Below are positions 36,721 through 53,447 of a stretch of 64,000 nucleotides of DNA, piece after piece. This stretch comes from an uncultured virus (IMG/VR IMGVR_UViG_3300028629_000006) (Duplodnaviria > Heunggongvirae > Uroviricota > Caudoviricetes). The notes under the pieces were generated by a model. The model was not told where the DNA came from and did no database searches. It saw nothing but the letters and a program-made list of their open reading frames with translations. How positions within the stretch are numbered: position 1 is the stretch's first letter; each line of letters opens with the position of its first letter. The stretch is from IMG/VR virus record IMGVR_UViG_3300028629_000006; one strand, written 5' to 3'. The translations under genes were made by a program, and so were the position numbers.

Positions 36721-36981
36721 AGTACCCTTTCACCAGCCCTTTCCTACCCGGATGCCGTAGCCCAAAAAGAAGAAGGCCCACGTCCCGCGGCATTTGCCCG
36801 GACGCGGACCTTAGTTCCCTCTCGCGAGGGATGAAGGTATCTCTACCCTTCAGGCCAGAATGTCTTGCCTACACCCGACCCTCAGATCCCCCACCACAGC
36901 GTCCGCAGCATGATAGCATTGCCGATAGTCTCGTCAAGATCGAATTCCTCGCAGAAAAACTGCCAGAACATGGCCATTTCT

Positions 36982-37014
36982 CCTGTCCCCGCTACCCTCA
37001 TTCGGTGCCCTCTG
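36982..37014 (+). promoter_or_regulatory. Candidate promoter (type 1 motif) for LSR2
   Basis: CCTGTCCCC-N15-TGCCCTCTG, 83 bp upstream of the LSR2 start. Confidence 0.7.
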
Positions 37015-37097
37015 AAGAGATAGTGGGGGACGTGGCAGAAATGCCTTGCCTTCCGGCGAACACCGAGTAACTGACTGGGACGCGAAAGGAGCGCAAC

Positions 37098-38633
37098 ATG
37101 GGCAATGAGAAGCGGGGCGAAGAAACCGGCCCGAGCCGGGTCGCATTCTACACGCGCATCTCGACCGACGAGGACCACCAGAAATACTCGCTCGATGCCC
37201 AGAAGGACCGGCTGGAAGCCTACTGCAAGAGCCAGTACGACGACGACTGGCGACTCTTCAAGATATACCGGGACACCGAGTCCGGCACTCACATGAACCG
37301 CCCCGGGTTGGAGGAGATGCTCTACGACGCCTCAAACAAGGCGTTCGACGTCCTGCTGGTCTTCCGGGTGGACCGGCTGTCCCGCAAGGTTCGCGAGCTC
37401 GCACTGATGGTCGACGAGCTCACCAAGTACCACATCGCACTGAAGAGCATCACCGAGCCGTTCGACACCGCCAATGCCGCCGGGAAGATGATGCTCCAGA
37501 TGCTCGGCGTCTTCGCCGAGTTCGAGCATGCGACCATCGTCGAGCGTACCAAGGTCGGCATGGAGAAGAAGGCCAAGGGCGGCGACTTTGTGGGCGGCTA
37601 CGTACCCTTCGGATACCGCCTCGAACCAGAGAAGGGTCTAGTGGTCCGCGAGGAGGAGGCGCTACTCGTCCGGAAGATATTCCAGATGTACGCCTTGGGC
37701 CTGGAGGGCACGCAGACCGTCGTGAACAAGCTGAACGCCAGCGGCATCCGGAAGCGCAGCGGCCAGAAGTGGGAGAAGCATGGCCTGCTCCAGATTCTCC
37801 GGAACCCGCTCTACGTGGGCAAGCTGCGCTGGCGGGAGTGCATCTACGACGGCAAGCACGACCCCATCATCTCGGAGGACATCTTCAAGAAGGCCCAGGA
37901 GATCCTGAAGGAACGCGCCACGGAGGTCAACGGCCGACAGTGGCACAACGGCGAGGAGCGGCTGTTGTCGGGCGTCATCATGTGCGGGAAGTGCGGCACC
38001 CACATGGTCGGGGTGAGCACCCAGAAGAAGGACCGCAAGTTCCCCTATTACCTTTGCAACAAGCGCTGGAAGACCCACGACTGCGACCAGGCCTACGTCC
38101 GGGCCGACCTCCTCGAGAAGGCCGTCATGATGGACATCACGGGCATGTTCCAGGACGAACAGTTCATGGCGCGCATCTGGGCGGAGGCCAACAGGCGCCT
38201 CGGGGCCGAGAAGCCTGACGTGGAGCGGGAACTCGGTCGGGTCGAGGCCCAGATGGACCGGACGCAGAAGTCCCTCGACCGCTACTTCCAGGCCTTCGAG
38301 GCAGGCAGCATGAAGCCCGCCCTGTGCAACGAGAAGGTCGCGGGACTCACCGCCCGCCTCGCGGAGCTGGATGCCGAGCGCGCCGCACTGAACGCGCGCC
38401 GCCAGAGGCTATCCCTGCCGGCCCTGGACCGGGACATGCTGGCCAAGTGGCTCAAGGAGTTCGAGGAGGTCTTCGCGGCCGGGACGAACCCGCAAAGAAA
38501 ACACCTTCTCCAGCGCGTGGTGAAGAAGGTGCTCATCCATGACCGCCGGACGGTGGAGGTCTGGTATGGCTTACCAAACTCCCCGTCGGTTCGTACAACG
38601 GGAGGTTTGGCTCCCCGAACGCAACCCTCTTAG
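37098..38633 (+). CDS. Large serine recombinase (LSR2)
   Basis: FYTRIST, FRVDRLSRK, GVFAEFE, recombinase domain, Zn ribbon CGKC..YYLC..C and coiled coil. Confidence 0.95.
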   Translation: MGNEKRGEETGPSRVAFYTRISTDEDHQKYSLDAQKDRLEAYCKSQYDDDWRLFKIYRDTESGTHMNRPGLEEMLYDASNKAFDVLLVFRVDRLSRKVRELALMVDELTKYHIALKSITEPFDTANAAGKMMLQMLGVFAEFEHATIVERTKVGMEKKAKGGDFVGGYVPFGYRLEPEKGLVVREEEALLVRKIFQMYALGLEGTQTVVNKLNASGIRKRSGQKWEKHGLLQILRNPLYVGKLRWRECIYDGKHDPIISEDIFKKAQEILKERATEVNGRQWHNGEERLLSGVIMCGKCGTHMVGVSTQKKDRKFPYYLCNKRWKTHDCDQAYVRADLLEKAVMMDITGMFQDEQFMARIWAEANRRLGAEKPDVERELGRVEAQMDRTQKSLDRYFQAFEAGSMKPALCNEKVAGLTARLAELDAERAALNARRQRLSLPALDRDMLAKWLKEFEEVFAAGTNPQRKHLLQRVVKKVLIHDRRTVEVWYGLPNSPSVRTTGGLAPRTQPS

Positions 38634-38637
38634 AACA
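38574..38637. other. Candidate LSR attachment site in the 3' end of LSR2
   Basis: Imperfect inverted repeats CCAAACTCCCCGT/ACGGGAGGTTTGG and GTTC...GAAC around TGGCTCCCC; composition changes immediately downstream. Confidence 0.35.
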
Positions 38638-38794
38638 CACATCCTGGCCGTGTTATGGCAGGAGATTTTGTCCAAAGGGTGCTTGTGCGCTTCATTGTTG
38701 GGCTCTACTTGTTAACACCGGCTTGATCGAGATAATCTCCTGCATCCTGAGCAATGAAGATCACGTTCGGCAGGTAATCCTGCAGGAGGGGGCG

Positions 38795-39889
38795 GTGACC
38801 AGAAACCCCTTGGCCAACACGGCCTACGAGGAACGACGCAAGCCACGTTCCGGCGATCCGCGAGGGCCATACTTCCGCGATCAAACCGCCATCATCCACT
38901 CGTATGCATTCCGGCGCCTTAAGCACAAGGCTCAGGTCATATTTGCCACCAGAAACGACCACGTCTGCACCAGAGTCGAGCATGTTCTGCATGTGGCAAC
39001 GATAGCTGCAACCATATGCAAGGGGCTGAACGAAACAGGTCGATGGGATCTGAACCCGGACATTGCATATGCCATCGGCCTAGGTCATGACCTCGGCCAC
39101 GCGCCCTTCGGACACGCTGGAGAGGAGGTGATCGCTAAGTACTGTCCTGGGTTCATTCATGAAGAGCACGGCTATCGTGTAGTTGAACGTCTCGGCCAGA
39201 AGGGTGGAGGATCTCTTAACTTAACCTATGCAGTAAGGGACGGCATTAGATGTCACAACGGAGAACGCTATGAGCGCAGCCTCAAGCCATCCGCCACGCT
39301 CAACAATCTGGATACGCTTCAGGGACGGTCCGCAGTCCCAGCGACATATGAGGGTTGCATCGTGCGCTTCTCGGACAAGATCGCCTATCTGGGCAGGGAC
39401 GTCGAAGATGCGATTACCCTGAAGCTTATCAGCGCCAGTGACGTCCCGATTCCTGTTGCAGCGGTCTTAGGCAACTCCAACTCCCAAATCATAGATGTCC
39501 TGGTGCGTGATGTTGTTGAAGCTTCGCAAGACACGGATGCAGTACAATTGTCTGAGGAGAAGTTTGCGGCCGTGAAGAACTTGTATGACTTCAACATCAA
39601 GAACATCTACAACCACGAGAGGCTGGCGAGGAGCAAGGAATACGTGAAGTATGTTGTTGGCTCACTCTTTGACTACTTTCTCAGTCTCTTTAGAACCCAT
39701 GGCTTCAACTTTGAGGACTACGCTAGCCGATCTCTTGCGATCAACAATGCATTTGGTCATTCGCTGGAGACCCTTGCCGCCTTCTACAAAGAGGAGGGTG
39801 CTACTGGCGAACGAATTGTCGCGGACTATGTTGCCGGCATGACAGATTCATACGCGCTGGATCAGGCCAAGCAGATCATGCTGGTCTGA
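38795..39889 (+). CDS. dgt: dGTP triphosphohydrolase (HD family)
   Basis: RD...IIHS.AFRRLKHKAQV, TRVEH, GHDLGHAPFGHAGE, DKIAY..D.ED and DYVAGMTD. Confidence 0.9.
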   Translation: MTRNPLANTAYEERRKPRSGDPRGPYFRDQTAIIHSYAFRRLKHKAQVIFATRNDHVCTRVEHVLHVATIAATICKGLNETGRWDLNPDIAYAIGLGHDLGHAPFGHAGEEVIAKYCPGFIHEEHGYRVVERLGQKGGGSLNLTYAVRDGIRCHNGERYERSLKPSATLNNLDTLQGRSAVPATYEGCIVRFSDKIAYLGRDVEDAITLKLISASDVPIPVAAVLGNSNSQIIDVLVRDVVEASQDTDAVQLSEEKFAAVKNLYDFNIKNIYNHERLARSKEYVKYVVGSLFDYFLSLFRTHGFNFEDYASRSLAINNAFGHSLETLAAFYKEEGATGERIVADYVAGMTDSYALDQAKQIMLV

Positions 39890-40307
39890 ACGATTTGCGC
39901 GGTGATCGCGCGATGGCTCTAAGAACTCGGCTGATCGCCCCTTCAGGATCACGTTCGACGGTGTGTCCCCAAATACGGATTACTGTCCAACCGCCCCGCC
40001 GCAGTCGTCTGAAGGTGCGCTGGTCGCGTCTCCTGTTCGCCTCGATCTTGGTTCTCCAAGAGGGCGAAAGACAACCCCTCCATCGAGGAAACCGCCAACC
40101 ATGCCAGAAATCACCATCAACAAAGATGGCCACCCTATGAGCTGGGAACACCACATCCGGTTTCCCTGGAAGGCTGGTGACATGCTTCCTGAACCGCAAT
40201 CCTTTCTTGCGAAGCGCGGACGTCACCACGCACTCAATAGCTGTGTCCTTCCCTCTGATACGGGACATGCAGTGGCTGCGCTGAGCTTTCGTTAAATTGT
40301 CTGCCAT
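39876..40307 (-). CDS. vsr: Very short patch repair endonuclease
   Basis: MSRIRGKDT, LPGKPD, FVDGDFWHG and GWTVIRIW. Confidence 0.93.
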   Translation of the reverse strand: MADNLTKAQRSHCMSRIRGKDTAIECVVTSALRKKGLRFRKHVTSLPGKPDVVFPAHRVAIFVDGDFWHGWRFPRWRGCLSPSWRTKIEANRRRDQRTFRRLRRGGWTVIRIWGHTVERDPEGAISRVLRAIARSPRKSFRPA

Positions 40308-40316
40308 CGTCCCCGG

Positions 40317-43235
40317 TTACGGTTCAAACTGGCCGAACGCTGCCACCATCTCTGTCCCGCCAGGGATTGAGATTGGCGGCGGTGTTCCTGCACCCGCCCG
40401 AAACTCCTGAGGTTCCCTCCGGCATAGCATGCGGAAATCGCAGCCGGAACACTTGTCGCGATGAGGACGCATGGGGTAATCTGACTGCAGAATGCCCTCA
40501 ACGGCAAACTCGATGTTTCGAAGCGCACTGTCAATGGCCTCGTCCGTCACAGGCACCTCGACGCGACGATTGTCCTTTAGCAGGTGGACATGCCCGGTCT
40601 TGGTATTCTCGCCGAGGACATGTTGCGCCGCACGCGCATAGAGTTGGACTTGGAGCGACAGCTCCGTCCATTCAAGGTTTACATTCTCGGCAGGCTCATC
40701 TCCACCTTCCACCGCTTTGAAATCGATGATCTCCGCCTCCAATATCTTCCCCGCGGGGTCCTGTTTCAATAGGAGATCAATGGAACCGGATATCACACAG
40801 CTGCTGAAGGGCACCTCAAAGGTTGCCTCAACCTGCCGTTGTCTTAGGAAGTCCGCTCCGAACGACGCAGCATACTCTCGCATGATCTCGATGGCCTTAT
40901 TGCGAGCCCTCTCATAGGGGCCCGGCGAGTTCTCCGGGTCTCTGCTTTGGGGCACATGTTTGAGGTGGAAGACAGAGGCTCCGACTTCGCCAGCCTCTGT
41001 CGGGGTCGGTGATGCATTCTGATATTCTTCATGAAGCTTCTCTACTGCTGTATGCACGGTCTTTCCGAAGCCGAACATATCAGGGATGAAAGGGCTGAAC
41101 CCGAAACTCTGCCGAAAGCGATAGTCGCGCGGACAACGCAAGTAGTACCGCAATGCCGAGAAGCTCGTAGGCAAGTCGGACTCTTCGGCTCTACGCTTCG
41201 GGACATGAGGGACAAGACCGGGCGTCGGCACAGCCGCATCATCTAACATCTCTGCATGCCGAAGCCTATTTGCGAATCGAGAGCGGTTTCTGGGTCTTGC
41301 CGCCGCGGGCAGGTGTTCTGCACCGGTCACGTATAGATAGCGCTCTGCGCGGGTGAGCGCCGTATAGAACAGCCGCGTCTCCTCTTCGGGCGTACTCTGA
41401 TAGGCACCACGAGTGATGGCGTTCTGGATTACTGCCAAGGGTAGCCATCCATCGTAATGCCGGCGACGCGCCGGGAAGCGCTGTTCCTCGACATCGCAGA
41501 TGAAAACGCAGGGAAACTCCAGTCCCTTCATCTTGTGGACGGTGGAAACGGTTACTGCATCGGGACGCTGAATCACTTCTTCCATCGAGACGTCGTATCC
41601 TGTCTCTGCTGCATTGCCGAGGAAATTCAAAATCTCATGGAAGCGACTCGATGAATCAACGCTCATGTAGACCGCTTCAACGTCTTGAATCATTCGGCTG
41701 AATAATCCGATGTCCCGCATGGTGGAATCATCAAAATCGTGTCGGGCTGTTCCGAAGGCCTCTAGCAAATCATAGACGAGCTGCTGTGGATATACACGCC
41801 GCCGAGCACCACCCGATGGCGTGTGAATGAGCCGCCCCCACTCGGTAAGCACTCTAATTAGTGCACCGAAGTCAGCATGCGGGTAGGCTGGCCGTATTGC
41901 AGCATCGAAATGGGCTTGGACTCTTTCCCGGGGTGGCGAGGAATTGCGAAGAAGCTCGAACGTGCTTCGGAGAACCGCGACTTGTGGCCTCTCGAACGGG
42001 CCACCACCTGCTTCGAGAGTGAAAGGGATGTCTCGTTCGGTCAGTGCCCTAGTGAAGGCCGAGTGCCTGGCACAACCGTCCTGCTCGGGTTGCCGCGTAG
42101 ACCTCATGAGGATTGCGAAGTCAGCTGGTGTAAGCCCGCGCATGGTGCCGTCGCTATCTTGATAAGCGGTGCCCAGTAGTGCTCGAATCTTATCTGCGAC
42201 CCACGAGACTTCTGTCGGTCGGTCGCTGAACCAGAGGGCTCGGAAGTCCCGAGGGGCCTTGTTCTCCCTAGCTGCGGGATTCTTCGCCATGCGGCTCGGG
42301 CCGAGTTCGGCTGCAGCAAATGCATCGGAAGCCTCGACAATCGGCGTTGTGCTTCGAAAGTTCGTGGCCAGGGTATGACTCGCAGAATCTGGATACCGCC
42401 TTCCGAACTCAAGAATGTTGCTTACATCCGCTCCCCGCCAGGCGTAGATTGACTGATCATCATCTCCCACCACGAAGAGCGTATCTGAGCGGCGATGCAA
42501 CTGACGGATGAGTTCCTCCTGGCAAGGGTTGACATCCTGGTACTCATCCACCATGAGATGCCGGAGTGGTTGGATTGCCTCATTGGCCGCAGCGTCATTC
42601 TGAACAAGTGAGTCTACAACCTTGCGGATCATCAATGAGAAATCGAGGAATTGATCCCTGTTAAGGCCGTCGTTAAGACCTCGCAAGACGGCGCCGAGGT
42701 CGCGGTCGGCCGCCTCGACGTCTACGAGCCGCACCAACTCATCATTCATCGTCTTCCACGCCTCAGAGATCTCCCTGACGGTGCGGAAGTACTTGTGCTG
42801 TGACGAGACTCTACCTTGGATGACCCTAAGCCCGAGCTGCCAATAGCGCGAAATCAGATAGAGGACGAGTCGGTTTTCATCCAGGACATCATACTGCCGA
42901 TATATAGCGTTCATCTTCATGAGAACCTGATGGCAATAGGAATGGATCGTGCCGATATACATCCGCCCCATGACCGCAGGATCGATGCCGACTCGCGCTA
43001 GGGCCGAGCTGACTCTCCGCTTGATTGCTTCTGCCGCCTTGTCTGTGAAGGTGAATGCCACAATCGAATCGGGAGGATGTCCTTCACCCAGAAGCCTGGC
43101 GATTCGATATGCCAGCGTTCGTGATTTGCCCGAACCAGCGCACGCTATCGTCAGCACTTCACGTGCAGGATCGAGCGCGGCATCTCGTTGCCTCGGGGTC
43201 AGCTCTGCGTCAAGTATCTCCCGTATGTTTGTCAT
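40317..43235 (-). CDS. UvrD-like SF1 helicase fused to a PD-(D/E)XK nuclease with Fe-S cysteines
   Basis: ACAGSGKS, VDEYQD, VGDDDQSIY, TVHKMKGLEF, YTALTRA; C-terminal CP..., GSID, IDFK, QVQLY and CSGCDFRMLC. Confidence 0.9.
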   Translation of the reverse strand: MTNIREILDAELTPRQRDAALDPAREVLTIACAGSGKSRTLAYRIARLLGEGHPPDSIVAFTFTDKAAEAIKRRVSSALARVGIDPAVMGRMYIGTIHSYCHQVLMKMNAIYRQYDVLDENRLVLYLISRYWQLGLRVIQGRVSSQHKYFRTVREISEAWKTMNDELVRLVDVEAADRDLGAVLRGLNDGLNRDQFLDFSLMIRKVVDSLVQNDAAANEAIQPLRHLMVDEYQDVNPCQEELIRQLHRRSDTLFVVGDDDQSIYAWRGADVSNILEFGRRYPDSASHTLATNFRSTTPIVEASDAFAAAELGPSRMAKNPAARENKAPRDFRALWFSDRPTEVSWVADKIRALLGTAYQDSDGTMRGLTPADFAILMRSTRQPEQDGCARHSAFTRALTERDIPFTLEAGGGPFERPQVAVLRSTFELLRNSSPPRERVQAHFDAAIRPAYPHADFGALIRVLTEWGRLIHTPSGGARRRVYPQQLVYDLLEAFGTARHDFDDSTMRDIGLFSRMIQDVEAVYMSVDSSSRFHEILNFLGNAAETGYDVSMEEVIQRPDAVTVSTVHKMKGLEFPCVFICDVEEQRFPARRRHYDGWLPLAVIQNAITRGAYQSTPEEETRLFYTALTRAERYLYVTGAEHLPAAARPRNRSRFANRLRHAEMLDDAAVPTPGLVPHVPKRRAEESDLPTSFSALRYYLRCPRDYRFRQSFGFSPFIPDMFGFGKTVHTAVEKLHEEYQNASPTPTEAGEVGASVFHLKHVPQSRDPENSPGPYERARNKAIEIMREYAASFGADFLRQRQVEATFEVPFSSCVISGSIDLLLKQDPAGKILEAEIIDFKAVEGGDEPAENVNLEWTELSLQVQLYARAAQHVLGENTKTGHVHLLKDNRRVEVPVTDEAIDSALRNIEFAVEGILQSDYPMRPHRDKCSGCDFRMLCRREPQEFRAGAGTPPPISIPGGTEMVAAFGQFEP

Positions 43236-43257
43236 GCAGCCCTCCTGTGAATATTCA

Positions 43258-44316
43258 CTACCGTGTTCCCTTCTCATTAGCGTGTGCTCGCAGCCTCTTG
43301 ATGATGCAGAATGCGTGTTTGCGAGCGAGGATCGGGGGGAAGGCGTTGCCGATCATCTGCGCTGCCGCGAACTTCCCCCGTTCTAGTGAGAACCAATAAC
43401 GGAGGGGGAAGGTCTGGAGAAGCGCCGCTTCTCGCAGTGTCATGGCGCGGTTCTGCGTAGGGTGAAGGAAGCGTCCTTTTGACGGATTTACGCAGCCACC
43501 AGTGATTGTTGGGGCGACCTTCCCCCAAGCCATCCTCCCGTACACATCGTTGAATCCATCACATTCCTCGTGACATCTCAATTGCTGCTTCACGCCCAAG
43601 GCAGTTCGGCTGCCGCCATTCTTTGGGATCGCGGCAATAAGTGCCTTCACTCTATCACACCGATCCTCCGGTAGTTTATGGAGGGCATCGCGAGACTTGG
43701 CTGGGCGGGGTAATCTCCCGATTGTATCTTTGACAGTGAGGCTTTTACTCTTGGCCGCCGGAGCGGCATATTGAATAGGACCGACACGGCTGGCAATAAA
43801 GACCATTCGTCGCCGGCGCTGGGGCACACCAAAGTGGGCAGCGTCTAGAACTATGGGTTTCCCGACATAGCCGAGATGTCGAAGCGCCTTCCGAACCTGA
43901 TTGAAACGGTAATCCTTGATCAGGCGCGGTACATTCTCGATCAAGACAACTTTGGGCAGGAGCTTTCTGACGAAGCGAAGATACTGAAACACCAAGTCCT
44001 TGCTCTTCTTGTCTCGCACGCGCCGGCGGCCGTTTAGACGAGGCAACGCGGAGAACGCTTGGCATGGGGGACAACCCGCAAGAAGATCGAGCCCACCCCG
44101 ACCCAGCTTGTGATATGCCATGACCTCCTTTACTGCTAACCGGCGGATGTCCCTAGCCCACACTTGCACGTCGCGGAGATTCTTGCGATAAGTTGCCACG
44201 GCGAGCGGGTCGTTCTCAACAGCAGCAATGACGCGGAAGCCGGCATTCTTGATGCCCAGGCTGGTCCCGCCGCAACCCGAGAACAGGTCTATTGCTCTAG
44301 GCTTTCGCTTCGCCAT
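43258..44316 (-). CDS. C5 DNA cytosine methyltransferase
   Basis: DLFSGCGG, GCPPCQ, ENV, PQRRRR, REAALLQTFP and IGNA. Confidence 0.95.
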   Translation of the reverse strand: MAKRKPRAIDLFSGCGGTSLGIKNAGFRVIAAVENDPLAVATYRKNLRDVQVWARDIRRLAVKEVMAYHKLGRGGLDLLAGCPPCQAFSALPRLNGRRRVRDKKSKDLVFQYLRFVRKLLPKVVLIENVPRLIKDYRFNQVRKALRHLGYVGKPIVLDAAHFGVPQRRRRMVFIASRVGPIQYAAPAAKSKSLTVKDTIGRLPRPAKSRDALHKLPEDRCDRVKALIAAIPKNGGSRTALGVKQQLRCHEECDGFNDVYGRMAWGKVAPTITGGCVNPSKGRFLHPTQNRAMTLREAALLQTFPLRYWFSLERGKFAAAQMIGNAFPPILARKHAFCIIKRLRAHANEKGTR

Positions 44317-44325
44317 GCTGCCTTT

Positions 44326-46218
44326 TCACGCCTCCTTAGTCACCAGCACCTCTTCGCCGAGCATGTCGATGATCTTGACGGCGACGGTGCTCTTGCCTCC
44401 GCCGTCCGGCGCGGGGATGTCGTATTCGCCGGAAACGAGATCGTTCTTCCGGGACGGTATATCAGACAGGGCGACGTTGAAGACCTTTCCGTCGTATGCC
44501 GGGTCGATCATCACGCAGTCCACCATGCAACGCCAATCCTTGATCTTTTTCTGGAAGAGGTCGCGTTCCATGTCCAGTCGCTTGATGATCGTGGGCGACA
44601 CGAAGTCCTCGATCCGGACGGTGATCCGGCCCTTGGACCTTGTGATCTTCACGCGGGCCGACGCCGGGTCATGCTTGATGAATCCTGCGTATTTCGGGTC
44701 CGTGCGGAGTTCAATCACACGCAGACGGTTCGGGACATTGTGCCCCTTCTTGCGCACCCGGTTCCACTCCTCCACCCACGAATGCGCAGTCAGTTCCATC
44801 CCCAGGCAGACGAGCACGACTTCCCGATCCTCGTCCTTCCGCGCTTCGAGCTCACGCTTCAAGTCCTCCAGATCCATCGGCGAGAGCGGGTGGTTGAAGG
44901 GTATGATCTTGACCAGTGACTTGCCCAGCACACCCTCGAAATAGGCGTCCGAACGGGACGTCTCTACGCCGATGTACTCGCAAGCGAGCTTTATCGCTTC
45001 GTTGTGCTGGACCTGGAGGTCGTAGTCGTTTACACGGAACACGCAGAAGGACGACTGCGTGGGTTCGGGCGGCTTCTCCTCCGTGTCGTCCATCAGACTC
45101 CCTTGTTTCGCGCCGCCGCATTCGGCGATCTGCTCGCTGATGGCATTCTGAAGCCGCTTCGCTGTCGTGTGGATCGCCCCCTTGTTGATATCGCAGCCGA
45201 TCCAGCGCCGACCGAGTCTCTGGGCCACGGCTGCTGTCGTACCAGACCCCACACAATAGTCTGTAATGATGTCGCCCGGGTTTGTATACACTAGGAGCAG
45301 CAATTCCAGAAGCGCTTCGGGTTTCTGCGTTGGATAATCCGTCTTCTGATTCTTGTCGGCGGGAGGGATCAGAGGAATACCCCAGATGTTGTCCAGCGTC
45401 TTAGCGTCAGACTCCTGGTAAACGAGATTCCCGTCCTCATCCTTGAGGTTCACCAGGATGCCGTCGACCTTTACGCGCTTTAGCTGCTTGATGACGCTCT
45501 CCCTTGGTGCTGCGAGGCGGTGAAAGGTGGCTTCATCTCCCTTAGCGTAGACCAGAAGTGTGTTGGTGGCCCGAGGAAGAATCCCCTTTCGAACGTCATG
45601 CATCTTATTGTAGAAGTACCAGTAGATTTCATTACGGAAGCTATTAGCCCCAAACACTTCATCCAGGACAACTCGAAGATGGTGCTCTTTTCGCCAGTCG
45701 CAGTGGAGCACGAAGATCCCTGACTCTGCAAGCAGCTCTTTGCTCAACAGGAGACGCTCGTACATAAACTGGAGATAGTTGTCATTAGCCCAAATGTCCG
45801 TGTACTGGATCTGCTCTCCGAGCGTATACTCTTCGCCTTCGATCCTGGCTTGCCCCTTCACCCCGCGCAGTTCCACCTTGCGAACATAGTCAGCACCAGA
45901 ATCGAATGGCGGGTCGATGTAGATGAGATTTACCCGGCCCCGAAATCCGTTGGCCAGCAAGTGCGCCAGCACTTCTTTGTTGTCGCCATGGAACAGCAGG
46001 CCGGTTTTCGGATAGGCCCCCGGCCAGTCCAGCCAGGTGGTCCTGGGCTTGATCTTAGCCAGGTCGCCCGACGGGTCGTAGGTCTCCACGTGCTGCGCCG
46101 GTAGAGCCGGGACGTAGCGCAGCGGCTTCTTGCCGACCCAGGAAAGCATCGGGCGGCCCTTGGCGGCCGACACTTCCACCTGAGCCGGGGCGTCTTCCTT
46201 CTTCGGTTTCTTACTCAT
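44326..46218 (-). CDS. mod: Type III R-M methyltransferase subunit
   Basis: IYIDPPF, YPTQKPE and D...GSGTT; adjacent to res. Confidence 0.88.
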   Translation of the reverse strand: MSKKPKKEDAPAQVEVSAAKGRPMLSWVGKKPLRYVPALPAQHVETYDPSGDLAKIKPRTTWLDWPGAYPKTGLLFHGDNKEVLAHLLANGFRGRVNLIYIDPPFDSGADYVRKVELRGVKGQARIEGEEYTLGEQIQYTDIWANDNYLQFMYERLLLSKELLAESGIFVLHCDWRKEHHLRVVLDEVFGANSFRNEIYWYFYNKMHDVRKGILPRATNTLLVYAKGDEATFHRLAAPRESVIKQLKRVKVDGILVNLKDEDGNLVYQESDAKTLDNIWGIPLIPPADKNQKTDYPTQKPEALLELLLLVYTNPGDIITDYCVGSGTTAAVAQRLGRRWIGCDINKGAIHTTAKRLQNAISEQIAECGGAKQGSLMDDTEEKPPEPTQSSFCVFRVNDYDLQVQHNEAIKLACEYIGVETSRSDAYFEGVLGKSLVKIIPFNHPLSPMDLEDLKRELEARKDEDREVVLVCLGMELTAHSWVEEWNRVRKKGHNVPNRLRVIELRTDPKYAGFIKHDPASARVKITRSKGRITVRIEDFVSPTIIKRLDMERDLFQKKIKDWRCMVDCVMIDPAYDGKVFNVALSDIPSRKNDLVSGEYDIPAPDGGGKSTVAVKIIDMLGEEVLVTKEA

Positions 46219-46225
46219 GGCATCT

Positions 46226-48886
46226 TCACTCCGTGTTCGTCGGCGGGAACGCGCCCGTCTTCACGAACTCCCTGGTCGTCTTCATCTGGTTCTGCGCGAC
46301 CTCATGGCCGACGAAAATCATCTCATACCTGAGACGATCCGGGTTGAGCCCCTCCCACCTACGGATCGCCATCGCCTTTCGTCCTTCGGTCCCCTGCACC
46401 GGGTCGTCCTTCATCCGCTGGTCTTTGATCTCGATGATGAGGCACTTCCCATTCTTGAGTCGGATCACGAAATCGGGCGTGTACCGCCGCCAGTCACCGT
46501 GCTCGTCGCGGTATTCCACGTAGAAGTCGGTCTTGTCCGGAGTCGTCAGAGCGCCGGTGAAGTAGACGTCCTCCACCTGCTCCGGGTCCGCGTTGGCCAG
46601 CAGCACCAGTTTCTCGCAGAACGACTTCTCCGGATTCGAATCGAAGTTATACGGCGTATAGTGGAACCCGAAGTCGGCCGTGTTGACCAACTGCAGGTCC
46701 TCCATGCGCATAAGCAGGGACTCGCGTTCTTTCAGATAGACGATCTCGGCGGTGTAGACCTCCGCGCCAGCATCGTCGATTTCCCTGGTGAAGCCTTCCG
46801 GTTTCACCAGGGCGAGCGCCACGTCCACCTTCTCCTCTTTCACCTCGTACCGGCACATCTGCGCCTCGATCTGCGCTCCGAGCGGTTCGACATGCCCCAA
46901 GGGTACCTCGCCGTCTTCGACGTAGAGGCGGTTCATCTCGTCGTAGACGCGCCAGAACTCCACGCGGTAGGCGTCTGAAAGACGTACGGCGGCGGTGTAG
47001 ACATCGAGCGACTCGAACGCCCCCTCGAGCCGCACCTCGTCTACTTCCTGGAGCACACGTTCGGCGGCCTGTCGTTCGACCAGCGTCAATATGGTGCGGG
47101 TCATCGCCTCGCCCGGCTTCACGTCGGGTTTGGAAAGGGTGACTGTGCTTTCGCCAGCGTCATCCTTCAGGACGACGCGCCGCATGATCTGAGTCACCAC
47201 CAGCGGCGGGATGTTCACCTTCCGCAGGCGCAGCACGGCGGTCCGCGTCTCCCTACCGGCGTGGTCCAGATCGCTGAGCGATTCGCCGTAGGTCTCCTGG
47301 AGCTGCTTGTCGAGGATCGACCGGTTATCCTGGGAGAGGTAGACCCGCGCGGGGCGATTGTTGCCCGGCACCTGGCGCAGGCAACGCGACGCGGCCTGGA
47401 GTACGAAGTTGTTGGAGCTGCGCAGCTTGCGGGCAAGCGCACAGGCGAAAAGGCTGGGGCAGTTCCAGCCTTCGGTGCCCTTGTTCACCAGCAGTATTAC
47501 GCGATGTGGGCTGTCGGGGAAATTGAGTCGGTTAAAGGCGTCGACCTCCTCCTGTTTCGACTCCGACGTGTTGCGGAGGATGATGCCGGGGTCCTGGCCG
47601 AGTTCGAGCAGCGTTCGCTCTACATGCGGACGCAGCTCGTCCAGATCGTCATTCTGCGGGAAGTAGATCGCCAACTTCGCCTTCTGTCCGCCGTGAAGCT
47701 CGACGTCGGCGTACTCCGAGAAGAAGTCGCGCACGATCTCCCGGACGAACTCGTCGGCATTCTCGTTGTCGAAATCGTATGCGTAGATGTTGCTGGTCAG
47801 CTCCTTCAGAATGCCATCCTGGATTCCTTGCGACAGGCCGTACCAGATGACTACGTCGCGCAGAGGTTGACGCTGGAAGTAAGGGGTCCCGGTCGTGTTG
47901 ACGACGCAGACGAGGTTCGGGCTCTTGTGATGCAGATAGTCGACCGTCTGTCGGACGCGCTTCAGGTCCTGGCCCATCTCGCTGCCGTAGGTATGGTGCG
48001 CCTCGTCGGAGAACACGGCCAGATGCGGCAGACTGGCGATGGCCTGCAACCGACGGTTCGCCACCGCCTCCTTCGCCGCCTCCAGCCCGGACTCGGGAAG
48101 CAGAGACCCGATGTCACTCTTGCGGATCGCCGACTTCTGAATCCGAATCTTCTCGGTGTTGGTAACAACCAAATTGAAGAGCGACCCGCGGATGACCGGA
48201 ACGTCCGGGTCGCCGTCGCGGGTGAAGGTAAGCTTCAGGTTAGCGAGAAACAGCTTGCAGAGCCGGGGCGGAAGGATCTTCTCGTAGGGCACCTCGGCGA
48301 GTTCGCGGAGAGATTCGATAATCGTTGTGCCGGGCGCGAAGACGAGCGCGTTCTGGACGAACGGCGTGGGCCGTTGCTGGAAGAGCCCCTCGGCATACTC
48401 CATCGCCATAGCAAATTCCGTGGCGATGATCGCGCCGATCAGGATCGTCTTGCCCGCCCCCATGGCCAATGCAAAGATATAACTTGGGTAGTCGAGCGTC
48501 AGAGTCTCGCGCAACGCGTCCAGCTTGATGTCCTTCACGAATCGGTCGTCTTCGCGTATCCTGCCCCACAGCGCGTCGATGCCCTGGTCCATGACGTACT
48601 GCTTGATATCTCCGTGGGTGAGACCGAGGGCCTCCAACCGTTGAGAGTTGCTGGAATACAGCCGGTTGTAGAGCTCGAAGATGTGTGGCGTCCTTTCGAT
48701 GAGCCTCAAGTACCAGTACGTTTCCAGCGCCTGAAGCTGCGCATGGCGCAGGAAGCGGCGCGTTCCCGTTACCTCATCAAGTTGAAAACGAAGCACCTCG
48801 GCAATGGTGGGGTAATCGGTGCACTCGTATCCGGTCCGCCGCCATTCAGCCGTCTTCTGTGCTATCAGTTGATGAAGATGCCCCAT
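46226..48886 (-). CDS. res: Type III R-M restriction subunit
   Basis: AMGAGKT, SDEAHH, EGWN and C-terminal YTPDF...IEIK. Confidence 0.88.
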   Translation of the reverse strand: MGHLHQLIAQKTAEWRRTGYECTDYPTIAEVLRFQLDEVTGTRRFLRHAQLQALETYWYLRLIERTPHIFELYNRLYSSNSQRLEALGLTHGDIKQYVMDQGIDALWGRIREDDRFVKDIKLDALRETLTLDYPSYIFALAMGAGKTILIGAIIATEFAMAMEYAEGLFQQRPTPFVQNALVFAPGTTIIESLRELAEVPYEKILPPRLCKLFLANLKLTFTRDGDPDVPVIRGSLFNLVVTNTEKIRIQKSAIRKSDIGSLLPESGLEAAKEAVANRRLQAIASLPHLAVFSDEAHHTYGSEMGQDLKRVRQTVDYLHHKSPNLVCVVNTTGTPYFQRQPLRDVVIWYGLSQGIQDGILKELTSNIYAYDFDNENADEFVREIVRDFFSEYADVELHGGQKAKLAIYFPQNDDLDELRPHVERTLLELGQDPGIILRNTSESKQEEVDAFNRLNFPDSPHRVILLVNKGTEGWNCPSLFACALARKLRSSNNFVLQAASRCLRQVPGNNRPARVYLSQDNRSILDKQLQETYGESLSDLDHAGRETRTAVLRLRKVNIPPLVVTQIMRRVVLKDDAGESTVTLSKPDVKPGEAMTRTILTLVERQAAERVLQEVDEVRLEGAFESLDVYTAAVRLSDAYRVEFWRVYDEMNRLYVEDGEVPLGHVEPLGAQIEAQMCRYEVKEEKVDVALALVKPEGFTREIDDAGAEVYTAEIVYLKERESLLMRMEDLQLVNTADFGFHYTPYNFDSNPEKSFCEKLVLLANADPEQVEDVYFTGALTTPDKTDFYVEYRDEHGDWRRYTPDFVIRLKNGKCLIIEIKDQRMKDDPVQGTEGRKAMAIRRWEGLNPDRLRYEMIFVGHEVAQNQMKTTREFVKTGAFPPTNTE

Positions 48887-48922: not shown

Positions 48923-49132
48923 TCAGTTTCGGTCGCCATCCTTCGGCTGTTCCTCTTCCTTGCCGCCGCCGCGCACCCACTCATCGACCTCGGACAGCTT
49001 GAAACGGAAAAGCCGCCCCACCCGGTGTGCCGGGAGCGCCTTCCGTTCGATCCATCTGTAGACGGAATCCTTGTTAACGCCGAGATGCGCCGCGACATCC
49101 TCGACACTGACCCACCGTTCTTCAGCATTCAC
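48923..49132 (-). CDS. Excisionase-like HTH_17 regulator
   Basis: WVSVEDVAAHLGV..SVYRWI...LPAHRVGRLFRF..SEVDEWV. Confidence 0.88.
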   Translation of the reverse strand: MNAEERWVSVEDVAAHLGVNKDSVYRWIERKALPAHRVGRLFRFKLSEVDEWVRGGGKEEEQPKDGDRN

Positions 49133-49196
49133 CCAGGTTCTTCCTCCCAGGAGCAAGACTTCACAAATCAGGCCTAAACAGAAGAGAGTAGATGAT

Positions 49197-49224: not shown

Positions 49225-49444
49225 AGAAGATCGCGCAAGCAGGTTCACGTAGCGGCCGCATCGCGCGCAACAGGTCCGGTGAGCTAACCGGGGTCACGTT
49301 ATCCCAGGGCAGGTGCAGCTCGGAAATGAGCCCGGTCTCGTCGTCCGTAAATGCGGCCACGGCGGCTCTGACGCCCATCAGGTTACGTACCCGGCGCATG
49401 CCGAAAGTGTCGGGCATTCCGCCGAACAGGCGCCCCGATTTTTC

Positions 49445-49473
49445 TTGACATCAATGTTTTGGGGCACTATTAT
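49445..49473 (+). promoter_or_regulatory. Sigma70 promoter for the prophage 2 regulator pair
   Basis: TTGACA-17-TATTAT. Confidence 0.75.
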
Positions 49474-49536
49474 CGGACGCTTAGGAGAGCTAAAGGAGGG
49501 TGGCTAAGGCAGATCGATAGCTAAGACATTCCGCCC

Positions 49537-49625
49537 TGAAGGGAAGAGATACCTTCACCCCTCCATAGAGGGAACTAGGGTCCGCGTCCGAGCTGATGCT
49601 GCGGGACGGCGGGCCTTTCTTTTTT
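49537..49625 (+). ncRNA. Structured 5' leader ending in an intrinsic terminator (attenuator-like)
   Basis: Hairpins TGAAGG/CCTTCA and CCCTC/GAGGG, then a long GC stem followed by TTTCTTTTTT, between the promoter and the 49651 start. Confidence 0.5.
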
Positions 49626-49650
49626 GGCGTGAGGGAAGGAGGCTACGGTC

Positions 49651-50847
49651 ATGGCGACGTTCAATCTGCGGCGGTTCTCATCCTCGGAGGCGCTTCGGGC
49701 CATCGCGCCTGTCCATCTGCTCGAGTTTTTGGCTCGGCACCAGGCTTTCTTTGTACAGCGCGGCCTCGCTCTGCCGGCCCCCGCGGCGGCCGAGACCTTG
49801 GACTACGAGCGCCTGGTCGCCATCCTGATGTCCCCCGAGGACGACACCCCGCCGGGGCTGGCCGAAGCGCTCTACTTGATCCACGAGATGTCCACACAGG
49901 AGGGCATGGACTCGATCTTGGATGGCGTCAAGAGCGGCGACGTCAAGATCGACGACTCGTCCGAGCTTACCGCTGCGGACGTCGCGGTGCAGGTGTGGCT
50001 GTCGGCGCCGCAGTACCTGGAGCGCAAGCACGCGGAGCAATCCGTGGAGCACACCCGGTCATTCGAATACTTCCAGTCGAACGTCGCGACTCCACCGCGG
50101 ATCAAGCGCCCGACGGCCGCCGTCCTGCGGGAGTTGGAGAAGGGGCTGGATGCTTGGTTCGAGGAGAAGAAGCGCGGGCGCGGGGCCAAGGTACTCGCCT
50201 TCCCCAAGGGCGATGAGGTGTGGTTCCTGGTCCGGCACGGCGATCTCCTTAAGCGCGAGGGCAAGTACGAGCACGGAGAATCGAGCACCTTCGTCTACCG
50301 GCCCGAGAAGTACGACGTCCTAATCTACAATCAGCAACTCGGGGAACTGCGCATCCACGCCGACACCAAGGGCGAGAAGGCTCTGTACCGGGCCAAGTTT
50401 GGCCTGCACCTCTTCGGGCGCGAGGACTTCTTCCCGGGGCAGGCCAAGTACACCCTCAAGCCGCTGATCGAACTCGGGAAGGACTCCCTGGCCTGCGACA
50501 TCGAGGGAATCGATGCGGTCTGGCTGGTCGAGCTGCAGACAGCCTGGGGTGGAGCACACCAGGAGGTGGAGATCCGCAAGGCAACGGACATCTTCGCTGT
50601 CTTCGAAGAACGCAAATGGAAGATTCATCCGAAGGCCAGGTTGACCAAGGCCAAGTTCCGGGTCAAGTTCACGTCCTCCAACACGCCCCGAACGGTCACG
50701 GTCAAGCCGCCAAACGTGGCCCTCTACGGGCGCGATAGCGATTCCGACCTAGTCGAGGCGTGGTTGGCAGCCCGTGGGTTCATCGGGAGCGAGGAGCAAG
50801 CCGGTGGTGAGCGCAAAGAAGCTGTCGCGGCTGTGGCCAACGCTTGA
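49651..50847 (+). CDS. Hypothetical protein (first gene of the regulator pair)
   Basis: 398 aa ORF with RBS; no recognised catalytic motif. Confidence 0.8.
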   Translation: MATFNLRRFSSSEALRAIAPVHLLEFLARHQAFFVQRGLALPAPAAAETLDYERLVAILMSPEDDTPPGLAEALYLIHEMSTQEGMDSILDGVKSGDVKIDDSSELTAADVAVQVWLSAPQYLERKHAEQSVEHTRSFEYFQSNVATPPRIKRPTAAVLRELEKGLDAWFEEKKRGRGAKVLAFPKGDEVWFLVRHGDLLKREGKYEHGESSTFVYRPEKYDVLIYNQQLGELRIHADTKGEKALYRAKFGLHLFGREDFFPGQAKYTLKPLIELGKDSLACDIEGIDAVWLVELQTAWGGAHQEVEIRKATDIFAVFEERKWKIHPKARLTKAKFRVKFTSSNTPRTVTVKPPNVALYGRDSDSDLVEAWLAARGFIGSEEQAGGERKEAVAAVANA

Positions 50848-51781
50848 GTCGCTGCCGGGGCTTGCGGCGGTCACGGCTGAGTGGTGTGACCGGCTGGGCC
50901 CCGAGTACGATCTAGCCAAGGTCTTCCTGAAGCCCACCGACCAACTGGCGTTGGCCTATCCCTGCGCCGGGCCGGGCGGGTGTGGCGGGTCTTGTCGGGT
51001 CGTAGTACACGGGCCCAGTGATGTCGTCGCGGTCTGCGAGGACTGCGGGACCACTCGGAAGCTCACCAAGGCAGACCGCGTCGTCTGGCGGGTGAACGTC
51101 GACCAACTGCTGAGGTCCGTGGCCAGCACCCTGAGCCTGACGGCCGATCCGGTAGCGACTCGTGAATTCCAGACGTACCGAGTGGGGACATTCGTTGCTG
51201 TCGGCAAGACTCGCCTGCCGGTCTACCTGACGATCCAGCTCGATCCGGACCGGCTGGCCCGAGCGGCCACATGGCTGCGGGCATCGTTCGAGGGGCCGCT
51301 GGTCCTCCTCGCTCCAACCCGTGCGCTCTTTGGAGGCACCCCGGAAGACGCCGCGTTGAAGGGCAAGGTGGCTTTCGGGAGCCTCGATGAGTTGGTGGGC
51401 GGCGGCACCAAGGAACTGGCAGCGTTGGATGGGGCGGATGGGCTACTCCGGGACGCCTGCGCCGCGGTGTTAGGCCTGTCTGATCAGAAGAAGCCGGCTC
51501 CGAAGAAGGTGCCGAAGCGTGCGTCGCGTGCCGCAACCATCGATGCGCTGAAACTAGAACTTCACAACTACATTCTCGGGATGAAGAGCAGACTCAGTCA
51601 GGCGGATGAGGCTGGCTCGCCCTTTGAACTCCCAGCGCTTGCGCAGAAGGATTTGGCCATCGCTATTGGGGCGACAAAGTCGTCTGTGTCCCGGGCCCTC
51701 GGCGATGGGAACGATCCGATGTTGGACATCCTACTGAAGACCGCGAACAGCGAGGAGATGATCCGCAAGTACTCCCGGTGA
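50804..51781 (+). CDS. Protein with N-terminal Cys cluster and C-terminal HTH
   Basis: YPC...C..C...VCEDC; LAQKDLAIAIGATKSSVSRAL HTH. Confidence 0.75.
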   Translation: MVSAKKLSRLWPTLESLPGLAAVTAEWCDRLGPEYDLAKVFLKPTDQLALAYPCAGPGGCGGSCRVVVHGPSDVVAVCEDCGTTRKLTKADRVVWRVNVDQLLRSVASTLSLTADPVATREFQTYRVGTFVAVGKTRLPVYLTIQLDPDRLARAATWLRASFEGPLVLLAPTRALFGGTPEDAALKGKVAFGSLDELVGGGTKELAALDGADGLLRDACAAVLGLSDQKKPAPKKVPKRASRAATIDALKLELHNYILGMKSRLSQADEAGSPFELPALAQKDLAIAIGATKSSVSRALGDGNDPMLDILLKTANSEEMIRKYSR

Positions 51782-51790
51782 CGCAGCCGA

Positions 51791-51821
51791 TTGCAGTTGT
51801 AGCCGTTTGCTGCAACTGCAA
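51791..51821. promoter_or_regulatory. Palindromic operator candidate
   Basis: TTGCAGTTGTAGC-5-GCTGCAACTGCAA; further TTGCAG/CTGCAA half-sites at ~51862 and ~51896. Confidence 0.6.
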
Positions 51822-51969
51822 TTCTGGCCGGAGGCTCTGTATCTATCCTAATTGAGCCCGGTTGCAGAGGGCTTCGTATTTTTCGGCCTCGGTTCCTGCA
51901 ATTCTTCCCCAGGGTGTCGAGCGGCGCACGGGGCGCTGCTCAGCCAGACACCCTTGCGGAGGAAGTACG

Positions 51970-52305
51970 ATGCAGGAAGCCAGACACGATCCCAGCAAGT
52001 CCCAGTTGTCGGAGGCGAGGCAGCGGCTCCTCGAGTCGATGCAGCGCATCACCTTCGGCCGCCTCGAAGGGCTCGCCGTCCGCGCCGGTGAGCCGGTCTT
52101 CGACCCGCCGCCGCGGGTGATCCGCGAGTTCAAGCCGGGCAGCAACACCAAGCGGTCTGAGGCGCAGCTCTCCGACTTCGCGCTCCGGAAAGAGCTGGCC
52201 GACCTGTTCGACTATTTCTCCCGCGTCCAGAACGTCACCATTCTCTCCATCGAGGTCCTGCACGGCCTGCCCTTCAAGGTGACGGTCGAGGAGGGCCTCG
52301 CCTAA
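51970..52305 (+). CDS. Small hypothetical protein upstream of the sigma gene
   Basis: GGAGGA RBS; LLESMQRITFGRLEGLAVRAGEPVF...IEVLHGLPF. Confidence 0.75.
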   Translation: MQEARHDPSKSQLSEARQRLLESMQRITFGRLEGLAVRAGEPVFDPPPRVIREFKPGSNTKRSEAQLSDFALRKELADLFDYFSRVQNVTILSIEVLHGLPFKVTVEEGLA

Positions 52306-52357
52306 CACGGGGTCGGCTCCCGAACATCCCCAACGTTTTCGGACCAGACATCTAACC

Positions 52358-52425
52358 GGCCACGAGGTGGAGGTCGATGTGGGTTCGCCGAGTACGGCGT
52401 CCACATGACCTCTGCCTTCGTGGCC
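52358..52425 (+). ncRNA. Long hairpin in the sigma leader
   Basis: GGCCACGAGGTGGAGGTC..ATGTGG..CGCCG-AGTA-CGGCG..CCACAT GACCTCTGCCTTCGTGGCC. Confidence 0.55.
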
Positions 52426-52477
52426 AGCTGCTTCTCGGTGAATCCCACGCGGTCTCCGCCGGCCAAAGGAGCCCGCA

Positions 52478-53065
52478 GTGGAGACCAAGCAGACCCCGAA
52501 CCCGATCAGCGACTACGCAGCCGAGACGATCCGCCACAAGGCCCGCCAGCTCGCCGGCACGGCGGGGTTCACCAAGGACGACATCGAGGACATCGAGCAG
52601 GACCTGGCGGTGGACCTGCTGGAGCGTCTGCCCAAGTTCAACCCGAACAGGGCGAAGCACACCACCTTCGTCGCCCGCCTGATCGAACGGAAGATCGCCA
52701 ACCTCATCCGCTACCGCACACAGGAGTGCCGAGACTACCGCCGCATGGAGTGCTCCCTGAGCGAGAACCTCGAGGACAGCGAAGGCGAGATCACCGAGCG
52801 CGCCGTCACGATCAGCCAGGACGCCGTGGACATCCGCATGGACCACCGGGTGCGCAGCCGGGAGGACGACACCTGGCTCCCGCCCGACGTGGCCGCGGTG
52901 ATCGCCGGCCTGCCGGACGACCTCCGCAGGGTAGCCGAGCAGCTCATGGCCGGGAGCTTCGCCCGGGCGGTCAAGGCCCTGGGCATGCCGCGGGCCACGC
53001 TCTACGGCGCGCGAGACCGCCTCCGGGCCATCTTCGAAGACGCCGGGTTGCGCCATTATTTGTGA
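52478..53065 (+). CDS. ECF-type sigma factor
   Basis: DIEDIEQDL...F.P.RAKHTTFV.R (region 2); GLPDDLRRVA...LGMPRATLY (region 4). Confidence 0.85.
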   Translation: METKQTPNPISDYAAETIRHKARQLAGTAGFTKDDIEDIEQDLAVDLLERLPKFNPNRAKHTTFVARLIERKIANLIRYRTQECRDYRRMECSLSENLEDSEGEITERAVTISQDAVDIRMDHRVRSREDDTWLPPDVAAVIAGLPDDLRRVAEQLMAGSFARAVKALGMPRATLYGARDRLRAIFEDAGLRHYL

Positions 53066-53070
53066 GTTCT

Positions 53071-53102
53071 TCGGCCAACTCGAATTTCCACCGGGTAAGT
53101 AA
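53071..53102 (+). promoter_or_regulatory. Candidate sigma-dependent middle promoter (type 2 motif)
   Basis: Immediately after the sigma stop; shares 16/17 bp with positions 19-35. Confidence 0.55.
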
Positions 53103-53141
53103 CGCATTGTCGGAGGCGAGTGCTGCGAAAGGACGGGGAAC

Positions 53142-53447
53142 ATGATCGGCAACATCTACCGCTACCAGTTCACGCCCGAGATTCCCGCACGGGACATTGA
53201 CGAGACCTTGCATCTGGCCCTGCTCGCCGCCGAGTGCCTGCACGGCGAGGCCAAGGTCCGGCTGGAGGCCTCGTACTGCCTGGACGCTGAAAAGCGCGTC
53301 TGCGTGATCGACTCGGGCACCGCCATCGGCAACTACGTCGTGCGCTTCTTCACCGGCTTCGCCACGCGGGAGTTCGGCGAGCGCGCCTTCACGGTGCGCC
53401 GCATGGACCGTGTGCCCGAGCCCAAGGTCGCGGGGGCGCCGGCGTGA
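53142..53447 (+). CDS. Hypothetical protein
   Basis: First gene of the middle operon; LALLAAECLHGEAKVRLE. Confidence 0.75.
   Translation: MIGNIYRYQFTPEIPARDIDETLHLALLAAECLHGEAKVRLEASYCLDAEKRVCVIDSGTAIGNYVVRFFTGFATREFGERAFTVRRMDRVPEPKVAGAPA

Follow-up and report, generated by a model that had tools for sequence, protein, structure and literature searches.

How prophages that lack a CI-type repressor stay silent and become induced is an open question, and it is raised by a stretch of 64,000 nucleotides from an uncultured tailed virus (IMG/VR record IMGVR_UViG_3300028629_000006; this whole stretch is called the window below) that holds two related prophages back to back. A preliminary description made from the letters of this DNA had drawn attention to positions 49651-53102 of prophage 2, where upstream genes ending in a helix-turn-helix (HTH), a palindrome, a small gene, an RNA hairpin, a sigma factor gene and a promoter motif follow one another, and had proposed that this order matches a module of prophage 1 slot for slot. 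All of these parts were located at these positions, and the slot-for-slot match holds. We consider it fairly probable that the module is a positively controlled lytic switch with four tiers that belongs to a family of serine-recombinase prophages. Its anatomy, the covariation of its parts, their natural swaps and the folds are observed directly; from these we infer the direction in which its second gene (B) acts, binding by its small protein (C), sensing by its first gene product (A) and the trigger.

Anatomy of the two modules and outline of a proposed switch

Prophage 2 lies on the plus strand, begins near 49650 and runs past the right end of the window. Its module is preceded by a near-consensus sigma-70 promoter (TTGACA-17-TATTAT, 49445-49473, plus strand, 11/12 matches) and a leader RNA of two hairpins, a terminator hairpin and a U-run (49523-49628, plus strand). 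Then follow, all on the plus strand, open reading frame (ORF) A (49651-50847, 398 amino acids) and ORF B (50804-51781, 325 amino acids); a candidate operator, O1 (51791-51821), which is a strandless TTGCAG...CTGCAA inverted repeat; further half-sites, O2 (TTGCAG at 51862 and CTGCAA at 51896; 51862-51901), directly 5' of the 5' untranslated region (UTR) of the next gene; ORF C (51970-52305, 111 amino acids); a two-state RNA gate (52343-52480); the phage sigma factor gene SIG2 (52478-53065); and a sigma-2 promoter motif (53073-53103) before the replication operon. Prophage 1, on the minus strand at about 2800-38630, contains terminase, lambda-type portal, capsid and serine recombinase genes. Its module, also on the minus strand, consists of a copy of the leader (36760-36866), a Hel308/Ski2-like helicase with a C-terminal domain that we labelled winged-helix-like by eye (33964-36717), a Com-like protein with four cysteines (33555-33761), an RNA gate in which GAGGCGCnCGACGCCC occurs twice and a hairpin covers the start of the sigma gene (33455-33541), and a putative sigma factor, SIG1 (32629-33474), which has no family match and owes its label to its position and the bipartite motif near it.

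The preliminary description had seen no sequence similarity between the modules. This is right for the seven module proteins (best BLASTP E 0.017) and wrong for the DNA around them: the 107-nucleotide non-coding leader directly 5' of each module's first gene is common to both (49523-49628 versus 36866-36760, 84% identity, E 9e-26), and the replication genes of the two prophages share 67-88% DNA identity. Prophage 1 also hints at the host, since window positions 28796-38733 match a Planctomycetota-labelled sequence at 99.99%, which suggests that phylum.

The switch that we propose would work as follows. In the first tier, a host sigma-70 promoter would feed a leader RNA that normally terminates and thereby keeps A and B low; DNA damage probably increases read-through, judging from where else the leader is found, and in relatives this tier would be filled or supplemented by LexA or an XRE/IrrE pair. 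In the second tier, A as an RdgC-like DNA binder and B would form a sensor-activator pair, with the C-terminal domain of B on TTGCAG operators activating a weak promoter before C. In the third, C would act in trans at CCAGACA..GGCC..GYGGAGG and move the RNA from a long hairpin to a long-range fold, which would allow read-through and/or translation of the sigma gene (and, in elements with a second site, also of the recombinase operon) and would set a threshold. In the fourth, the sigma factor would use bipartite promoters of its own to transcribe the operons for replication, excision and the head. Tiers 1-2 would form one exchangeable cassette and tiers 3-4 another.

A survey of related loci

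Queries built on sigma-2, C, A and sigma-1, together with leader patterns, gave about 200 loci, whose genes we called and clustered with a simple gene finder that missed some genes. This survey of modules upstream of such sigma genes, one of the checks suggested at the outset, supports a modular cascade. The gene order A-B-(C)-SIG2-D-nuclease-AAA_24-DUF669 is strongly conserved across the surveyed loci. Other fillers of the slot before C or sigma are a distant A paralogue (HHalign 98.4%), QatC fusions and a Hel308-like helicase, and a LexA or an XRE plus IrrE pair often lies upstream of the slot in relatives. ORF D (53142-53447, 101 amino acids), the first gene of the early operon, is present in most SIG2 elements and has no family match.

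These relatives also qualify the earlier statement that there is no CI repressor. No S24/XRE repressor was found among 29 window proteins scanned by Pfam, a set smaller than all ORFs of an element that continues past the window's right end, and so none of the scanned proteins forms a lambda-type CI/Cro arrangement of an HTH-S24/XRE gene beside an early promoter; the small gene at 48923-49156 encodes an HTH_17 protein. The relatives do carry LexA or XRE plus IrrE, and the absence of a repressor is thus a feature of this window and not of the family.

Operators follow the exchangeable domain of the upstream protein

Homologues of B combine a common Cys-rich N-terminal part with a divergent C-terminal domain, which in the window is an HTH with a weak match to HTH_Crp_2 (E 0.002, below the cut-off). 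C-termini cluster into 13 types, and the sequence downstream of the gene changes with the type. At least two TTGCA matches within 200 nucleotides of the stop codon are found in 14/14 genes of type 1, the type of the window, as opposed to 1/39 of type 0 and 0/10 of type 2, and the CTGCAA at the O2 position is kept in type-1 loci. Conversely, a GCYAC motif marks 9/10 type-2 genes, 1/14 of type 1 and 0/39 of type 0. These operator patterns were composed after the sequences had been seen. In five closely related loci that are split, B lies on the other arm, about 5 kb from an operator pair that stands before C; in L054 and L087 an insert intervenes, and the pair remains with sigma. Linkage alone is therefore insufficient to explain the match of domain and operator, as operators stay with C or sigma when B is distant or an insert intervenes.

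Natural hybrids point in the same direction and support the general modular design that had been proposed. Locus L125 resembles prophage 1 at 87.5% identity at the recombinase end and at 91.4% from the RNA gate onward and has A-B in place of the helicase; L083/L149, L133 and L142 likewise have the order A-B-Com-SIG1. In L122 and L124, an A close to that of the window goes with a B of another C-terminus and another operator, and in L152 the window's HTH type and TTGCA sites stand before SIG1. No helicase was found ahead of C-SIG2 in the surveyed loci. Upstream and downstream cassettes thus recombine among relatives.

The same slot could be read as anti-phage or stress cargo (RdgC-like, QatC, HamB-like helicase) in a recombination hot spot, with no regulatory cascade at all. 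Slot proteins do match defence models (QatC E 8e-58, HamB E 5e-40), and the same area carries insertions of unrelated cargo genes, but every examined slot filler ends in a DNA-binding-like domain (QatC in at least two different ones) and the operator type follows that domain even at a distance; we regard this reading as very improbable. In four loci (L008:4469-7322, L019:5333-7039, L020:4431-6230 and L024:1282-3327), the activator slot is taken by QatC (QueC-like) domains with differing DNA-binding domains fused to their C-terminal side, and a conserved gene of about 250 amino acids lies in front; this suggests that a prophage activator was made out of a defence sensor.

Activation or repression by B

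The preliminary description had the HTH activate, and the promoters of the family favour this. A score of at least 10/12 for a sigma-70 promoter is reached in 0/42 regions before C and 0/8 before Com, compared with 12/19 before lexA, 11/15 before the leader, 2/12 before XRE and 1-2% of shuffles. In relatives, A-B lies downstream of lexA behind a candidate LexA box, so that A-B would rise on damage. Because there is no sigma-70 consensus before C or Com and because A-B stands behind this candidate box, B quite probably activates rather than represses, as far as comparison can tell.

The alternative would be that B is an immunity repressor bound to O1 and O2 about 100 bp apart, looping out the C promoter, with A as its sensor or antirepressor and a leader that only keeps the repressor low. 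The position of O2 counts against activation here. It borders directly on the next 5' UTR, and in SIG1 loci that lack Com it precedes the start codon by about 10 nucleotides; this geometry, with operator pairs 100-130 bp apart, also suits a looping repressor, which would moreover have no competitor among the scanned window proteins. But such a repressor would have no sigma-70 consensus promoter to repress, damage would raise it wherever A-B follows lexA and its candidate box, and an OmpR-type Trans_reg_C domain forms the C-terminus of one slot protein, so we think repression by B unlikely.

O1 was also considered as a terminator of A-B and rejected: it has a U-run in several relatives and none in the window. 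A further hairpin at 51911-51954, with counterparts in relatives, lies in the 5' UTR of C just before the ribosome-binding site.

Folds and pairing of A and B

The model of A (pLDDT 85) has the tandem fold of RdgC and CENP-N/L at residues of about 133-382. Its best structural match is RdgC (PDB 2owl and 2owy; Z 11.0, 223 residues aligned) at a loose fit (root-mean-square deviation 5.9), and a Foldseek search, which the preliminary description had called for, returned RdgC (E 2e-4) with CENP-N next. A differs from RdgC in its sequence (about 10% identity), in an extra N-terminal helical domain and in always being paired with B, and it has no RdgC profile match in Pfam, NCBIfam or PHROG. The modelled fold suggests a DNA binder, and A may be the DNA sensor of the switch; against this, a shared fold by itself gives no function. 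That A and B form a sensor-activator pair, as had been predicted, receives weak support from a complex model that scored 0.38 against 0.00 for the best control (contact agreement of at least 69%, partner pLDDT of at least 79), judged by a mark that 116/157 solved and 2/215 mismatched pairs reach and that only 18 solved pairs at 0.60 or below reach. Neither A nor B has a match to a known activator family, the FlhC/FlhD type included.

A two-state RNA gate and its candidate ligand

The preliminary description had placed a long hairpin at 52358-52425 before the sigma gene. The hairpin is strong (-53.2 kcal/mol, z -8.3, 0/200 shuffles), and it turns out that the RNA is a switch with two or more folds, of which this hairpin is one. 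In an alignment of 27 sequences, the long hairpin covaries (90.1% of cells paired, 8/18 pairs compensatory), and so does an alternative long-range helix with about 52435-52464 (95.6% paired, 5/11 pairs compensatory), the two being mutually exclusive. The gate further comprises the conserved CCAGACA..GGCC..GTGGAGG site, a small 5' hairpin predicted by RNAalifold (with a G-C/A-U swap in 16/10 sequences) and a small stem over the sigma Shine-Dalgarno sequence (52468-52471). In 26/27 gate sequences modelled for this, the Shine-Dalgarno sequence is shut in the complete RNA (median open 0.01). The gate itself is clear, and it may act on translation, termination or both. It has no Rfam match at E up to 5.

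Protein C is the candidate for opening it. Among 64 distinct SIG2 genes, 40 have both C and the RNA, 22 have neither and two are discordant, with an RNA profile seeded from 36 of the positives; on a sigma tree of 63 of these 64 genes, the state with neither part requires six changes, at least five of them forced. Kilobases from the gate, a second copy of its 5' site stands after the sigma promoter and before the DUF2924-recombinase operon in 16/24 C-bearing and 0/14 C-less elements at 3 bits (10/24 versus 0/14 at 10 bits), counts that omit four loci of unknown state and include five near-clonal positives. This second site is the best evidence, from comparison, that C acts in trans. The prediction that 51970-52305 is an RNA-binding activator therefore fares well as regards a trans factor of the gate and lacks a fold match for RNA binding. 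C has an internal two-fold repeat (HHalign 89.8%) and no cysteines. We found no match for it in Pfam (with a 23-member alignment), PHROGs, NCBIfam, the named clusters of the ESM Atlas or PDB sequences, and no Foldseek match for its structure in the PDB or BFVD (best VIA-align Z 2.6), which does not make it a new fold. A likeness to DUF2292/YezD was considered, but no match supported it.

Several observations weigh against C as the ligand. Locus L061 contains C but no gate RNA, L031 the reverse; the two parts are adjacent, so that joint loss is partly expected; the second site at the left end of the window is seen by eye only (hidden Markov model score -0.2 bits); and no fold match of C hints at RNA binding. 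In the models, blocking the 3' arm of the hairpin opens the Shine-Dalgarno sequence only partly (median 0.01 to 0.25, with 0.05 for a shuffled-arm control; a gain of more than 0.2 in 12/26), and clamping the small 5' hairpin alone leaves it closed. These points would suit a variant in which the activator and sigma tiers stand and the gate is flipped by another agent, such as sigma-loaded polymerase, the ribosome finishing C or an antisense RNA, while C serves some other purpose. Such a variant does not sit well with a remote second site that is limited to C-bearing elements, nor with the gap from the C stop codon to the RNA, which varies over 33-78 nucleotides with no upstream ORF frame kept. 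The Com-like gene of prophage 1 moreover shows a like pairing with its own RNA (13/13 versus 1/19), and we judge it quite unlikely that C is not the ligand. An upstream ORF in the gate was rejected as a candidate, its frames being split 8/11/8 over 27 sequences with no conserved peptide.

The protein of the prophage 1 gene at 33555-33761, here labelled Com-like, has a CxxC..CxxC pattern, and Pfam gives no Com match for it; no second Com site was found in prophage 1 beyond the two known exact repeats. The C-less elements L063, L066 and L074 have a different conserved terminator-like RNA upstream of sigma.

Sigma factors and their promoters

SIG2 matches sigma-70 region 2 (PF04542, 26.3 bits at a cut-off of 24; phrog_1740, E 6e-9), and no match to a region 4 HTH was found at E 0.05. 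Bipartite motifs precede its presumptive target operons, as expected of a sigma-70-family (ECF-like) sigma factor, and the motif after the sigma gene, proposed earlier as a promoter, does recur in this way. A profile from 28/69 post-sigma regions matches the window only at 53066 and 49419, the latter belonging to a second copy (49382-49412, minus strand) found by profile and pattern search, which faces the HTH_17 (excisionase-like) and restriction-modification genes. A pattern from these two sites finds a third (6-36, plus strand) before the DUF2924-serine recombinase genes at 264-2370, giving three in the window and none in 100 shuffles. When the replication or recombinase operon is split from sigma (L082, L036, L080), the motif accompanies the operon, and G002 has an additional SIG2 site ahead of a gene homologous to the first one of prophage 1's head operon. 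In prophage 1, the sigma-1 motif TGTCCCC-N15-TGCCCTCTG has three exact copies: after sigma and before the early operon (32679-32709, minus strand), before the serine recombinase at 37098 (36984-37014, plus strand) and before the head operon (15466-15496, minus strand). With three mismatches allowed, 12/100 shuffles reach three matches, and weight is therefore placed on exact matches, one of which is independent of how the pattern was written. Tandem pairs of sigma-like genes occur in some elements (L117:8507-9575, L180:1038-2230).

A shared leader RNA linked to DNA-damage genes

The leader lies behind a sigma-70 promoter or a lexA stop codon and has a terminator at its end. Its structure covaries over 16 sequences (95.3% of cells paired, 8/24 pairs compensatory, 0/500 shuffles), and it thus combines a conserved covarying 5' UTR structure with an intrinsic terminator as attenuators and riboswitches do. 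It has no match in Rfam, and no conserved antiterminator pairing was seen by eye. A model of it (R2), seeded from the prophage copies, found it in 8/151, 6/62, 1/70 and 1/70 genomes of overlapping sets, while model R1 gave no match in viral LexA or IrrE loci among 100 sources. Two matches were dropped: L118, partial at a contig end, and L199 (E 6e-4), within coding DNA.

In this small sample of 22 distinct loci, seven leaders lie right after lexA (one judged by eye), one before recA and one before DUF6504-dinB-dnaE2, so that 9/22 are next to damage genes; two more precede chromosomal helicases and 11 precede upstream-slot genes of prophages. One lexA-leader case runs on into a second dinB-dnaE2 operon. 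By its neighbours, the leader appears linked with DNA-damage genes, a hint at what feeds both switches. The idea that it substitutes for LexA was rejected as a rule, since it stands right after lexA in 7/22 loci. A candidate LexA box, CTAAC-N4-GTTAG, lies between the -35 and -10 elements of lexA promoters and of a dinB-dnaE2 operon (L097, L098, L127, L132, L133, L141, L145, L177:8484 and L179:9822); the label is ours, and no such box occurs in the window.

Some leader loci are chromosomal. The helicases behind the leader (L205:4541-6868, L206:4222-6516) lie among housekeeping genes and have a C-terminal domain like that of prophage 1 (33% over 96 amino acids). Also amid housekeeping genes, L178 and L179:7745-9786 carry lexA, the leader, a gene of 147 amino acids and a B-like gene, possibly a domesticated remnant of the switch. 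In L177:7603-7977, a four-helix-bundle gene (23S rRNA IVP/bAvd-like) sits within a DUF6504-dinB-dnaE2 operon.

Surroundings of the two prophages

Between the modules, at 38723-48886, lies lower-GC cargo comprising a dGTPase-like HD protein, Vsr, a UvrD-nuclease, a C5 methylase and a type III restriction-modification pair, toward which the sigma-2 promoter at 49382-49412 points. Beyond the far side of prophage 1, the DUF2924-serine recombinase cassette with its sigma-2-type promoter occupies 6-2786. Prophage 1 may have inserted within prophage 2, or a third element may abut it; attachment-site repeats longer than 9 bp for a nested prophage 1 were not found. Contigs from four of nine listed RNA runs cover parts of A, B, C, the 3' part of the leader and early genes at a depth of 2-3.5 and leave sigma uncovered, and we gave them no weight because they show neither strand nor level.

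Comparison with known systems and implications

Among known systems, the proposed gate is closest to Mu Com and the top tier to SetR-SetCD, and the last tier would be a phage sigma cascade. In phage Mu, C is a DNA-binding activator of the Com/mom transcript. According to PMC6483171, Com binds a short hairpin beside a translation-inhibition structure and thereby frees the next gene. The likeness lies in the order of activator, transcript with a small first gene and gated next gene; in both, the small gene is followed directly by an RNA structure in which the next start is hidden. Here, however, the gated gene encodes a sigma factor that would commit to lysis and not a DNA-modifying enzyme, the protein encoded at 51970 has neither cysteine pairs nor likeness to Com, and the RNA differs in its two folds, which covary and exclude each other, and in the second site ahead of the recombinase.

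SXT/R391 (SetR-SetCD) and IncC elements (AcaCD) have an operon of two activator genes, which turns on genes for excision and transfer and is itself under a repressor that responds to damage. The lexA-A-B and XRE-IrrE-A-B arrangements of relatives resemble this, but SetCD and AcaCD differ from an activator with an exchangeable DNA-binding domain followed by an RNA gate and a sigma tier, and in the window's elements an RNA leader is present and the slot holds no repressor. BglG/LicT-RAT are antiterminator systems, and P1 C4 and P4 CI are cases of RNA immunity. The gate recalls the former in its small hairpin, a candidate protein site that overlaps the 5' arm of the long hairpin, often with a U-run, and by analogy the latter would share control of lysogeny at the RNA level; yet C has no CAT/PRD domain, and there is no sign of an antisense RNA. 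A serine recombinase with DUF2924, a lambda-type portal, a GpA terminase and a sigma-AAA_24-DUF669 block are features in which these prophages resemble phage WO/Symbioviridae-like prophages. The main text of PMC9203015, to which this statement is limited, mentions neither DUF2924 nor a repressor or RNA polymerase, and so it neither confirms the kinship nor describes the switch. A search that did not extend to most subscription journals found no published description of the assembled switch, the leader or the gate RNA.

Once the shared RNA input is included, the model proposed at first holds in outline, and comparison supports it well. The family offers a complete and testable design of positive control in which natural swaps pair each protein with its site. 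Three new objects come out of it: an RNA gate with two states, for which a protein whose fold has no match is the candidate binder; a group of activators, each with its operator; and a structured leader linked to SOS genes. The small sigma factor, short promoters and RNA gate are potential orthogonal expression tools. More tentatively, we raise the possibility that the leader is a DNA-damage-responsive RNA switch, either a riboswitch or a protein-dependent attenuator, that forms an RNA arm of the phylum's SOS response over recA, lexA operons and dinB-dnaE2. Prophages would have captured it for induction without a cleavable repressor; the signal would then pass through activators and operators that are exchanged as pairs and through an RNA gate whose opener represents a new class of RNA-binding protein. 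If true, such a damage-responsive RNA element would be a new layer of SOS control.

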